A DNA stretch of 64,000 nucleotides from a virus: the IMG/VR virus record IMGVR_UViG_3300045988_162176, positions 32,001 through 96,000 of that record; one strand, given 5' to 3'. The position numbers and the translations under genes are program-made. The notes beneath the pieces are model-generated. The model did no database searches and was not told where the DNA came from. It saw only the letters and a list, made by a program, of their open reading frames with translations. Position 1 is the stretch's first letter. The number at the start of each line of letters is the position of its first letter. Below are positions 32,030 through 32,912 of this stretch, in pieces.

Positions 32030-32078
32030 TATAAAAATAAAAGTCTCATAATCAATATTAAATTAATTATGAGACCTT
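32030..32078 (-). terminator. intrinsic terminator of L1
   Basis: GGTCTCATAAT..ATTATGAGAC hairpin followed by TTTTATTTTTAT. Confidence 0.65.
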
Positions 32079-32877
32079 TTATTAAATTAGCTAATTCAAT
32101 AAATTGTGAAGACTTGGAAGTTATTCCCCGTTACATTACTTCCTACACTCATTGAAACTTTCCCGTTTGCGGCTATCCATTTCGACGGACAAGTGATTAC
32201 AAATCTACAAGTCTTCTGTAAAACTGTGAACAACCTACCCGTAGGTTATTCAAATACGATAATAAGCGCTCCGACCCCCATCGGATTCTTATTAAAGGTG
32301 AGGAATAGACGACGTTCACCTCACTATGAGCCTCTGGTCCTAGCATCTGGACTCACCACGAGCCTTTGGTCCTATACTATAGTACTCTGGACAATGCGAC
32401 GCTCTTTGGCTGATACTCTTTGCCAGCAAGTCATTTGTAGGGAATAGGTGTATTCACCCTACTATAAGCCTCTAACCATTACTTAAAAAATATCTCGCTC
32501 TTTGTCCAACATCTTTAGTTGGCAATCAACCTACACCATCGAGCAAGAATTCGATAGGTAGGATTTAATAATTCTTGCAAGAATTTCCCTCGTTAGCTTT
32601 CAGAGGGAGAGCTTGTCGCTCTAGCATCTTTATAGTTCCTATTCCTATAAAGGGTGCTTCCGACAGTATAAACTTTATACATGTCTAAGAAGTCATTGCA
32701 TCTCAGCTATTATTGAATATTCAATTATGTGTCTTACAGTCAAGAACGTGATTTGTCTATCAGGCCCGAGTAGTGCAAACCAAGAAGATTTTTTCTGCGC
32801 TCTATCGGGAAGAGTTTTTTCTCTTTCGGATAGCGGATAGAATCTTTTCTCCTTTTTTTCATCCTTTCCCTTGGGAC
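32079..32877 (-). ncRNA. large (about 0.8 kb) structured non-coding RNA with its own promoter and terminator (L1)
   Basis: No minus-strand ORF of 60 aa or more; G+C-richer than the flanks; TTGACA-17-TATATT promoter at 32884-32912; intrinsic terminator at 32030-32078; three copies of AGAGGCT[CT]AT[AG]GT[AG]GG, two of them forming covarying hairpins GTAGGG..CCCTAC (32437-32462) and GTGAGG..CCTCAC (32298-32324). Confidence 0.65.
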
Positions 32878-32883
32878 AATCTT

Positions 32884-32912
32884 AATATACCATAAGATTA
32901 GTTTCCTGTCAA
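32884..32912 (-). promoter_or_regulatory. promoter of the large ncRNA L1
   Basis: AATAATAAACCC TTGACA-17-TATATT. Confidence 0.65.

Follow-up and report, generated by a model that had tools for sequence, protein, structure and literature searches.

A predicted autonomous gene for a large, structured non-coding RNA family in two clades of gut phages

The window, a 64,000-nt stretch of viral DNA (positions 32,001 to 96,000 of IMG/VR record IMGVR_UViG_3300045988_162176), contains an 881-nt gene-free gap between a gene for a 161-aa protein (31531–32016) and a gene for a 90-aa protein (32898–33170). This gap, the largest in the window with the exception of the tRNA array, appears to hold a minus-strand gene for a large, densely base-paired non-coding RNA, which we compare here across related phages. 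Position n of the RNA corresponds to window position 32881-n, and labels such as L148, L194, and L197 denote the loci compared in the analysis. The gene and its signals are as follows.

32884..32912, minus strand: predicted promoter, with –35 element TTGACA (32912–32907), a 17-nt spacer, TGn-extended –10 element TATATT (32889–32884), and a predicted start at ~32877.
32863..32878, minus strand: 5' leader motif UGUCCCAAGGGAAAGG, promoter-proximal, generic in the phage group, and common to subfamily B (described below).
32030..32880, minus strand: the RNA itself (ends predicted), ~848 nt in the window phage and about 590–850 nt in relatives, with no coding signal.
32079..32039, minus strand: predicted intrinsic terminator, an 18-bp hairpin followed by a T-run (a U-run in the RNA).

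The original prediction for this DNA, based on its letters, proposed a promoter of the form TTGACA-17-TATATT and a strong intrinsic terminator bracketing about 800 nt richer in G+C than the flanking genes, and all of these features held up. The predicted promoter has the TG of an extended –10 element, matches 11 of 12 consensus positions, and scored best in the 3 kb scanned. Its –35 TTGACA was unchanged in 39 of 39 variants, and the extended –10 sequence TGGTATATT was kept in 37 of the same 39. Among members of subfamily A, to which the window RNA belongs, the terminator is missing solely in L194. The G+C fraction of the gap is 0.381 versus 0.324 for the window as a whole, and values inside the gap run from 0.39 to 0.45 (200-nt windows reach 0.45) versus 0.25 to 0.31 in the flanks.

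Near-consensus promoters of the form TTGACA-17-TGnTAtaaT number ~25 on the minus strand of the window, including that of the RNA; others lie, for example, at 20554, 24452, 28742, 35974, 37879, 44393, 48998, and 54382. The leader motif also occurs 3' of TTGACA-17-TAtaaT promoters that precede protein genes in ~20 other phage contigs. In these unrelated-looking contigs (L199–L220), the consensus UGUYCCAAG(N)GGAANGG directly follows such promoters, and it may form a conserved 5'-terminal stem-loop. The combination of promoter and leader was dropped as a marker of the RNA, as it is a generic promoter plus 5'-untranslated-region module of many phages. The number of like promoters on this strand and the generic promoter-proximal leader suggest that expression of the RNA would be early, strong, and driven by the host polymerase.

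Multiple observations support non-coding status. First, the longest minus-strand open reading frame (ORF) with a start codon encodes 49 aa, in keeping with the earlier statement that none reaches 60 aa, and the longest stop-to-stop frame spans 62 codons. Second, no coding reading emerged when stop codons were reassigned, as recoding of TAG, TGA, or TAA opened no frame longer than 91 codons on the minus strand. The TAG check is relevant here, since one tRNA of the phage has anticodon CUA. Third, variable columns were distributed 63/69/55 by phase in the RNA versus 88/46/31 in the adjacent gene, showing no codon periodicity, and only 8 of 74 indel blocks were divisible by three, so that variation ignores reading frame. 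A 40-codon ORF at the 5' end of the RNA has lost its ATG in L002, L010, and L011. Finally, the 113-aa plus-strand ORF noted previously as antisense to the transcription signals is present (32106..32447, GTG start) and spans an indel-rich part of the RNA. The CUA tRNA, an amber suppressor labelled Pyl by ARAGORN, belongs to a 17-tRNA array (49679–61688, minus strand). Given this tRNA and the finding that TAG ends just 1 of 41 long minus-strand ORFs of the window, recoding of TAG may occur in a part of the genome.

Relatives were gathered by using flanking proteins as handles, by exact-protein look-ups, and by pattern scans of metagenome and genome collections. A search of metagenomes for homologues, suggested with the original prediction, yielded 41 subfamily-A versions and three subfamily-B RNAs, and the feared lack of conservation or covariation among related phages did not materialize. 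The subfamily-A versions are distinct, are 81–99.9% identical, and come from IMG/VR contigs of 108–221 kb and from assemblies of human gut and pig gut; one short contig matches the window exactly. Within the RNA, the 3' 330 nt are 92–99% identical in DNA and the 5' part 73–85%. By comparison with the 92–99% DNA identity of the 3' domain of the RNA, the neighbouring 161-aa protein shows 70–78% amino-acid identity. Sensitive blastn of INPHARED phage genomes with the RNA gave no match, an IMG/VR scan with the 14-base sequence CGGGGAATAACTTC gave mostly chance matches, and pattern scans (the module pattern; H6 plus H9; TAAT-GCTGAGATGC-NAT) returned subfamilies A and B and coding-sequence noise, with no third subfamily. 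A match in a Maricaulaceae genome covered 32 nt and was judged to be chance. One complete-looking phage contig with the RNA (L192; USDL01000001.1, 123,382 bp) was deposited as the genome 'uncultured Clostridium sp. UMGS1616' and is used as a species representative, a label that reflects a binning artefact or else hints weakly at the host.

From 5' to 3', we divide the RNA into the following elements.

32742..32866, minus strand: variable 5' domain, with closing helix AAGGAUG/CGUUCUU, variable hairpin H1, and hairpin H2 (GGUUUGC/ACAAAUC).
32712..32725, minus strand: hairpin H4, a nearly invariant perfect palindrome, AUUGAAUAUUCAAU.
32698..32707, minus strand: near-invariant single-stranded motif GCUGAGAUGC, common to subfamilies A and B.
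32657..32692, minus strand: hairpin H5, CUUC/GAAG closing a 26-nt extension, replaced by a GAAA or GUAA tetraloop in relatives.
32628..32652, minus strand: hairpin H6, an 8-bp stem with conserved loop GAAUAGGAA.
32587..32622, minus strand: hairpins H7 (AGAGC/GCUCU) and H8 (CCCUC/GAGGG), with compensatory variants.
32570..32585, minus strand: hairpin H9, a perfect palindrome, AAUUCUUGCAAGAAUU, unchanged in about half of subfamily-A variants.
32530..32562, minus strand: nested hairpin H10, CCUAC...GUAGG around CUAUCG...CGAUGG.
32496..32525, minus strand: hairpin H11, UUG-CCAAC...GUUGG-A-CAA, then conserved AAAGAGCG.
32298..32480, minus strand: repeat-module region, with modules of ~100 nt.
32108..32294, minus strand: conserved 3' domain, with D1/D2, D3, long-range helix GAAGACUU/AAGUCUUC, D5, D6, and D8, 92–99% identical within subfamily A.
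32039..32103, minus strand: 11-bp hairpin around palindrome AAUUAGCUAAUU, followed by the terminator hairpin and U-run.

In the 5' domain, most relatives have H1 as a 7-bp hairpin, and it takes a longer, ~70-nt form in the window, L006, and L164. The run of central hairpins from H4 to H11 carries conserved loops and linkers (GCUGAGAUGC, GAAUARGAA, AAUUCU/AGAAUU, and AAAGAGCG), and AAGAGCG positions were also mapped there. The H4 palindrome is unchanged in all but one of 26 variants (the exception, L164, reads AUUGAAUAUCCAAU), and the GCUGAGAUGC linker reads GCUGAGACGC in L167. Four of the eight H6 pairs covary when subfamily B is included, where the hairpin takes the form CUCCAAG-GAAUAAGAA-CUUGGAG, and four of the five H11 pairs covary, giving CCAAC/GUUGG, CUGAU/AUCAG, and AUAAU/AUUAU forms. 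H8 is missing in L008 and L014 and occurs elsewhere in the compensated forms CCACC/GGUGG and CCUCC/GGAGG. About half of the variants read AGAAUC in the 3' arm of H9, placing A opposite C at the closing pair; two changes in L194 keep the pairing through G-U and break the DNA palindrome, and subfamily B has AAUUCU/AGAAUU around a larger, 8-nt loop. The H10 loop, AAUUCUUGC, repeats the 5' arm of H9.

Each repeat module opens with a variable hairpin and UAGGACC-AGAGGCUYAUAG, continues with a 6-bp stem that carries the loop UGAA...CUAUU, and ends with another hairpin and AAAGAGCG; the window has two good copies and one degenerate copy, and relatives have one or two. Of the three occurrences claimed for the motif AGAGGCT[CT]AT[AG]GT[AG]GG, one is exact (32458–32473) and one has a single mismatch (32320–32335), compared with 0.05 expected by chance, but the third (~32348–32363, AAAGGCUCGUGGUGAG) is degenerate, with at least three mismatches. 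The claim that two copies lead into compensated hairpins with TGAA...CTATT loops proved correct: the window stems GUAGGG/CCCUAC and GUGAGG/CCUCAC are joined in relatives by GUGUGG/CCACGC, GUGGGG/CCUCAC, and AUGAGG/CCUCAU, for five compensated versions in total. In the 3' domain, the long-range helix GAAGACUU/AAGUCUUC encloses three hairpins, and the D8 loop ends ...GGGGAAUA. Beyond this domain, the register of the 11-bp hairpin survives a paired one-base deletion found in L161, L166, and L167. Perfect palindromes of at least 12 nt number three in 851 nt versus 0.28 expected, a count reached by 5 of 1000 shuffles. Each forms a hairpin with a self-complementary loop and shows little or no variation within subfamily A, and none of the three recurs elsewhere in the window.

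We assessed this structure over 165 hand-curated base pairs in ~25 local helices and 41 sequences. Canonical combinations filled 96.0% of cells at these pairs versus 36–46% when the 3' partners were slid by 1–3 columns. Both sides had changed at 25 pairs, compared with 17.3 ± 1.9 in column shuffles (0 of 500 reached 25) and 7–9 in the slid controls. G-U combinations outnumbered A-C combinations 672 to 116, which indicates that the pairing belongs to the minus-strand transcript rather than to double-stranded DNA. Folding energy does not separate the strands (z = –4.4 for the RNA strand and –6.8 for its complement), whereas the G-U versus A-C count does. An independent tool count for the central region agreed: the covariation score was 0.090 in subfamily A alone versus 0.060 in shuffles (0 of 500 as high); in a joint alignment of A and B, 14 of 40 pairs changed on both sides (7.9 ± 1.8 in shuffles), with a score of 0.231 versus 0.084 (0 of 500). 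Among relatives, hairpins are swapped for GNRA tetraloops, deleted, or duplicated as whole units. As far as aligned sequences can tell, this pattern of variation is the signature of a folded RNA. Long-range helices proposed by global RNAalifold folding were unsupported by variation (UAGCUGA/UUAGCUA is broken in L006) and were replaced by the hand-curated local helices. Helix D7 (UCAAUGAGU/AUUUAUUGA), a would-be pseudoknot, competes with the 11-bp hairpin and was dropped because the paired deletion noted above and a G-to-A change in L006 favour the latter.

A second subfamily, B, was found in L197, a 172-kb contig with a Ro60-like protein 57% identical to the copy in the window; this protein, which in the window is encoded upstream of the RNA, has thousands of homologues. 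In L197, a WDGH-domain gene and a gene for serine hydroxymethyltransferase (SHMT) are separated by 760 nt free of genes, which contain a TTGACA-17-TATTAT promoter, the same leader, ~690 nt of RNA, a 10-bp terminator hairpin with U-run, and the ribosome-binding site (RBS) of SHMT. RNAs ~98% identical to that of L197 occur in two IMG/VR contigs (212 and 217 kb), and one of the two has another promoter spacer; the RNA stays nearly unchanged where the spacer differs, which, together with the stronger conservation of the 3' domain than of the neighbouring protein, counts as evidence of selection on the RNA. Subfamily B keeps GCUGAGAUGC followed by hairpins H5–H10 in the same order, with the H6 loop GAAUAAGAA on a completely different stem. 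A covariance model, R1, built from 16 subfamily-A sequences only (146 positions, 40 pairs), scored 177.6 bits on window 32568–32713, matched all three subfamily-B RNAs over its full length (28–35 bits, E = 1.9e-6 to 6.2e-5), and gave no match better than E = 0.7 in 527 kb of other phage loci. Both A and B have, behind a TTGACA/TAtaaT promoter, an H5–H9 core in which GCUGAGAUGC, the loop GAAUARGAA, and the hairpin AAUUCU/AGAAUU come in that order. In the 3' half of B, we recognized by eye analogous helices (AAGAGAA/UUCUCUU, ACACUCGU, and a hairpin with a loop ending GAAUAA), and these by-eye helices are the sole basis on which the 3' halves of A and B would be homologous. The L197 phage also encodes folate one-carbon enzymes, a FolD-like tetrahydrofolate dehydrogenase/cyclohydrolase and SHMT (2207–3082 and 14113–15357), and the SHMT gene lies directly behind the RNA terminator.

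These results support the existence of a new family of a known kind, the large ornate phage RNA, that is absent from Rfam 15. Non-coding status, strand, phage origin, conservation, and covariation were all borne out for the large ornate RNA originally proposed, and the family comprises, by sequence comparison, at least two subfamilies in two clades of gut phages with genomes of ~110–220 kb. Our preferred reading, to which we assign a probability of roughly 0.6, is that the locus is an autonomous phage gene whose product, a densely base-paired RNA of ~590–850 nt, acts as a folded RNA in trans. Host RNA polymerase would transcribe it from the near-consensus extended –10 promoter, a class used throughout the gene block, and the transcript would end at its own intrinsic terminator in nearly all members. 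The product would be neither an mRNA nor a gene-specific leader, and the folded RNA would act as a particle, either as a homo-oligomer alone or with protein.

Gene order around the RNA bears on its autonomy. In the window and most of subfamily A, the order is promoter, RNA, terminator, 161-aa gene, and 335-aa gene. L194, the most divergent subfamily-A member, has promoter, RNA, and a 332-aa gene, with neither terminator nor 161-aa gene; subfamily B has promoter, RNA, terminator, and SHMT; and L148, the nearest relative without the RNA, has promoter and a 160-aa gene. In several lineages with an intact RNA, the 161-aa gene encodes only 126 aa or is broken into parts of 98 and 76 aa. Neither Pfam nor PHROGs gave a match for the 161-aa protein, and its AlphaFold model has a pLDDT of 49. 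Because the downstream gene varies or is absent among members, the comparisons indicate an autonomous RNA gene rather than a leader, although read-through of the terminator probably still feeds the downstream genes.

The opposing idea, that the RNA is a long 5' untranslated region acting in cis as a leader or attenuator whose terminator tunes read-through into downstream genes, draws on L148, where the same promoter directly drives the 160-aa gene, so that by comparison the RNA and terminator sit between a promoter and an RBS. The RNA of L194 leads without a break into the RBS of the next gene, and the downstream gene in general lacks a convincing promoter of its own, the sole candidate being one that would exclude its Shine-Dalgarno sequence. 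We nevertheless consider a leader improbable. The four layouts, the decay of the 161-aa gene, and the better conservation of the RNA than of the protein it would regulate fit poorly with control of a specific gene, as do downstream genes as different as those for the 161-aa protein, the 332-aa protein, and SHMT. In addition, an RNA of 590–850 nt with ~25 helices is far larger than known attenuators, and it matches no Rfam riboswitch, leader, or cis-regulatory model. Far less plausible still is an element that acts as DNA (an origin, packaging site, or operator cluster) or the remnant of a mobile element or intron. Perfect DNA palindromes and direct repeats are present, presence or absence of the RNA between close relatives resembles insertion or deletion, and an IS605-type transposon gene lies 2.6 kb away, in the following arrangement.

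29166–30317, minus strand: IS605-type TnpB, 383 aa, with OrfB_IS605 and Cas12f1-like TNB domains by domain matches.
29047–29119, minus strand: RAGATH-18 RNA (Rfam, 59.9 bits), which looks like the guide (omega) RNA of TnpB.

However, TnpB has this RNA of its own and is itself missing from the relatives. TnpB and RAGATH-18 look like a recent insertion into the window phage, since relatives with otherwise the same gene order lack TnpB. The strand-specific excess of G-U over A-C pairs, the retention of H9 in L194 by G-U pairs only, and compensatory changes that keep hairpins but not sequence also speak against a role as DNA, as does the absence of the palindromes elsewhere in the window. No group I/II intron, retron, or omega-RNA model matched, and no reverse transcriptase or endonuclease gene is present.

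A protein encoded upstream of the RNA raises a more specific possibility for what an RNA acting in trans might do.

36030..37796, minus strand: 588-aa DUF2828 + DUF7788/vWA protein, a candidate partner, assigned to phrog_850 'RNA-binding protein' and encoded 3.1 kb upstream of the RNA.

Its AlphaFold model (pLDDT 68) matches Ro60 over the full length (Foldseek E = 6e-7 to 9e-6, probability 1.00), with Thermus phage phiLo Ro60 among the matches; a PDB sequence search with this protein found nothing. Under one explanation, the RNA is the cognate RNA of this Ro60-like protein, a giant Y-RNA-like regulator, tether, or decoy that redirects host RNA decay or repair during infection. The PHROG assignment and the predicted full-length fold are consistent with this explanation, as is the location of the RNA downstream of the Ro60-like gene on the same strand in both subfamilies (3.1 kb away in the window, 3.7 kb in L197), because bacterial and phage Y RNAs typically share the strand of Ro60 and lie no more than 4 kb from it (PMC4201824). 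Rfam models detected no Y RNA or YrlA in the window or within 8 kb of the Ro60-like genes of relatives (L197 8001–9686, L196 8001–9698, L198 8001–9701), which leaves the protein here without a known partner RNA. The Ro60 connection is nonetheless rather unlikely. Y RNAs are 80–130 nt with a tRNA-like domain, whereas this RNA is 590–850 nt and ARAGORN and Rfam find neither feature; the protein is also encoded in L196 and L198, where the 8 kb to each side contain no such RNA; DUF2828 proteins occur in ~700 phage records that lack the RNA; and the shared distance may merely reflect conserved gene order in related phages. An equally doubtful alternative, drawn by analogy, is an RNA-only homo-oligomer that would self-assemble through symmetric loop-loop or duplex contacts into a cage or ring enclosing or sequestering something. 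In its favour are a lifestyle like that of GOLLD (phage-encoded, 0.6–0.85 kb, a conserved 3' and variable 5' part, and a very strong predicted promoter), the over-represented and little-varying palindromes with self-complementary loops, and the H10 loop, which duplicates one arm of H9 so that the same sequence could pair in trans. Against it are the lack of any sequence or structure match to GOLLD or ROOL, the loss of the H9 palindrome in L194 and subfamily B, and the absence of an adjoining tRNA island, with the nearest tRNA 16.8 kb away.

Gene-free stretches of 570–850 nt with a G+C fraction of 0.27–0.29 adjoin the Ro60-like gene in the window (37797–38368, minus strand) and in L196 (7345–8000 and 4759–5604), and the first of these has the window promoter at 37879. 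A 459-aa protein upstream of the RNA in L194 was rejected as Ro60-like and is the methylase. This cytosine-5 DNA methylase (313 aa, 34302–35243 in the window) is interrupted in some relatives by an intein with a LAGLIDADG endonuclease (L149 136–2118; L194 3–1382).

Returning to an autonomous gene for an RNA that acts in trans, several points weigh against it. The promoter, terminator, and both ends of the RNA are all predictions, and, as L194 has no terminator, its RNA is physically the leader of the next gene. The column shuffles ignore phylogeny and overstate independence because the sequences are closely related, and the joint A and B alignment was fitted to the structure of the model. Many helices, including many in the 3' domain, never vary, because subfamily A is shallow (at least 81% identity) and B has three near-identical members. 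Finally, R2, a model of the subfamily-A 3' domain, failed to link A and B statistically: where a match was expected in L197, it reached 7.3 bits (E = 1.9 in 6 kb), short of significance.

If the RNA does act as a particle, a partner or decoy of the phage Ro60-like protein would be one minority possibility and an RNA-only multimer of the GOLLD/ROOL type another of similar weight, with an even chance left for another kind of scaffold or sponge that binds protein or ribosomes. Modules that vary in copy number would suit a multivalent binding scaffold. More tentatively, the RNA could represent a hitherto undescribed class of giant RNAs in phages, one forming a defined particle, whether as a 'giant Y RNA' partner of Ro60-like (DUF2828) proteins or as a third RNA-only multimer beside GOLLD and ROOL. 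The former would be the long-sought RNA partner of phage Ro60-like proteins, re-tooling host RNA surveillance, and in either case widespread phages of the gut of humans and pigs would produce the RNA early and in abundance. The conserved spot 3.1–3.7 kb downstream of the Ro60-like gene poses a concrete binding question, the answer to which could explain the widespread DUF2828 proteins of phages.

To our knowledge, elaborate conserved structure in a non-coding RNA longer than 500 nt has been described for only a few RNAs of bacteria or phages, namely GOLLD, ROOL, OLE, HEARO, and raiA. Each of these large RNAs opened new structural or mechanistic ground. The present RNA would add an independent family, found in abundant human and pig gut phages, with a clean gene structure defined by predicted promoter and terminator. 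Its two divergent subfamilies allow comparison, and nature has supplied 'deletion mutants' in the form of hairpin swaps, changes in module copy number, and members that lack the terminator or downstream gene.

We compared the RNA with the 4227 models of Rfam 15, which include GOLLD, ROOL, OLE, HEARO, raiA, Y RNA/YrlA, introns, and ribozymes. No model matched the RNA region at its gathering score in a search of the 64-kb window or at E ≤ 10 in a search of 31900–33000 with permissive filters, and the subfamily-B locus was likewise without a match, ROOL included. The search thus covered the GOLLD, ROOL, raiA, HEARO, and group II models suggested at the outset, and also gave no match to OLE, group I introns, RNase P, tmRNA, or 6S RNA; ARAGORN found no tmRNA or tRNA in the region. 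As for HEARO and IS605 omega RNAs, the TnpB of the window is paired with a RAGATH-18 RNA of its own, and relatives that retain the large RNA lack this TnpB. In type III toxin-antitoxin loci of the toxIN type, a promoter, a repetitive RNA, an intrinsic terminator, an RBS, and a small protein gene follow one another. The layout here is similar, but the modules are ~100 nt and form an irregular array rather than tandem short repeats, and the downstream gene is absent, replaced, or decayed in RNA-bearing members, and the 161-aa protein is without a Pfam or PHROG match. Riboswitches and leaders are set apart by the three different downstream genes found here and by the lack of a match to a known aptamer. 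Y RNA and YrlA share the same-strand position at ~4 kb or less from a Ro60-type gene but not the size, tRNA-like domain, or Rfam match, and some relatives have the protein without the RNA.

Large phages of Firmicutes offer a further parallel. Staphylococcus phage K (Herelleviridae) makes lnc001 and lnc002, abundant early non-coding RNAs of 635 and 1154 nt that both flank tRNA genes, one of them made from an early promoter of its own with the highest read counts (PMC9241854). Like the RNA described here, they are long, non-coding, and absent from Rfam, but neither a nucleotide profile nor R1 revealed similarity. The 3' end of lnc001 (NC_005880 13632–13768, minus strand; L168 633–769) scored 43.4 bits against the Rfam DUF3800-I model, for which the gathering score is 44.2, and this match overlaps an annotated terminator. 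A catalogue of ~10,000 viral structured-RNA candidates contains motifs of 29–151 nt only (PMC10690425) and may list fragments of the RNA.

The closest comparisons are with ROOL and GOLLD, which recent cryo-EM has shown to be RNA-only nanocages (14-mer or 8-mer). ROOL is a phage RNA of ~0.6 kb associated with gut and rumen, highly expressed where tested and with no known protein partner (PMC12286853). The shortest members of the present family are of similar size, but there is no Rfam match, no tRNA island alongside, and no shared motif that we recognized. GOLLD is encoded by phages or prophages, is ~0.8 kb, and has a conserved 3' and a variable 5' region (PMC12286853), all of which are also seen here. 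In contrast, GOLLD usually adjoins tRNA islands, whereas the nearest tRNA here (49679–49749) is 16.8 kb away, and the conserved motifs differ. The original prediction had left open whether the RNA belonged to GOLLD or ROOL or formed a new class. Membership in either was not found in Rfam 15, and the lack of a match to GOLLD, ROOL, raiA, HEARO, OLE, or introns supports the alternative of a new class.

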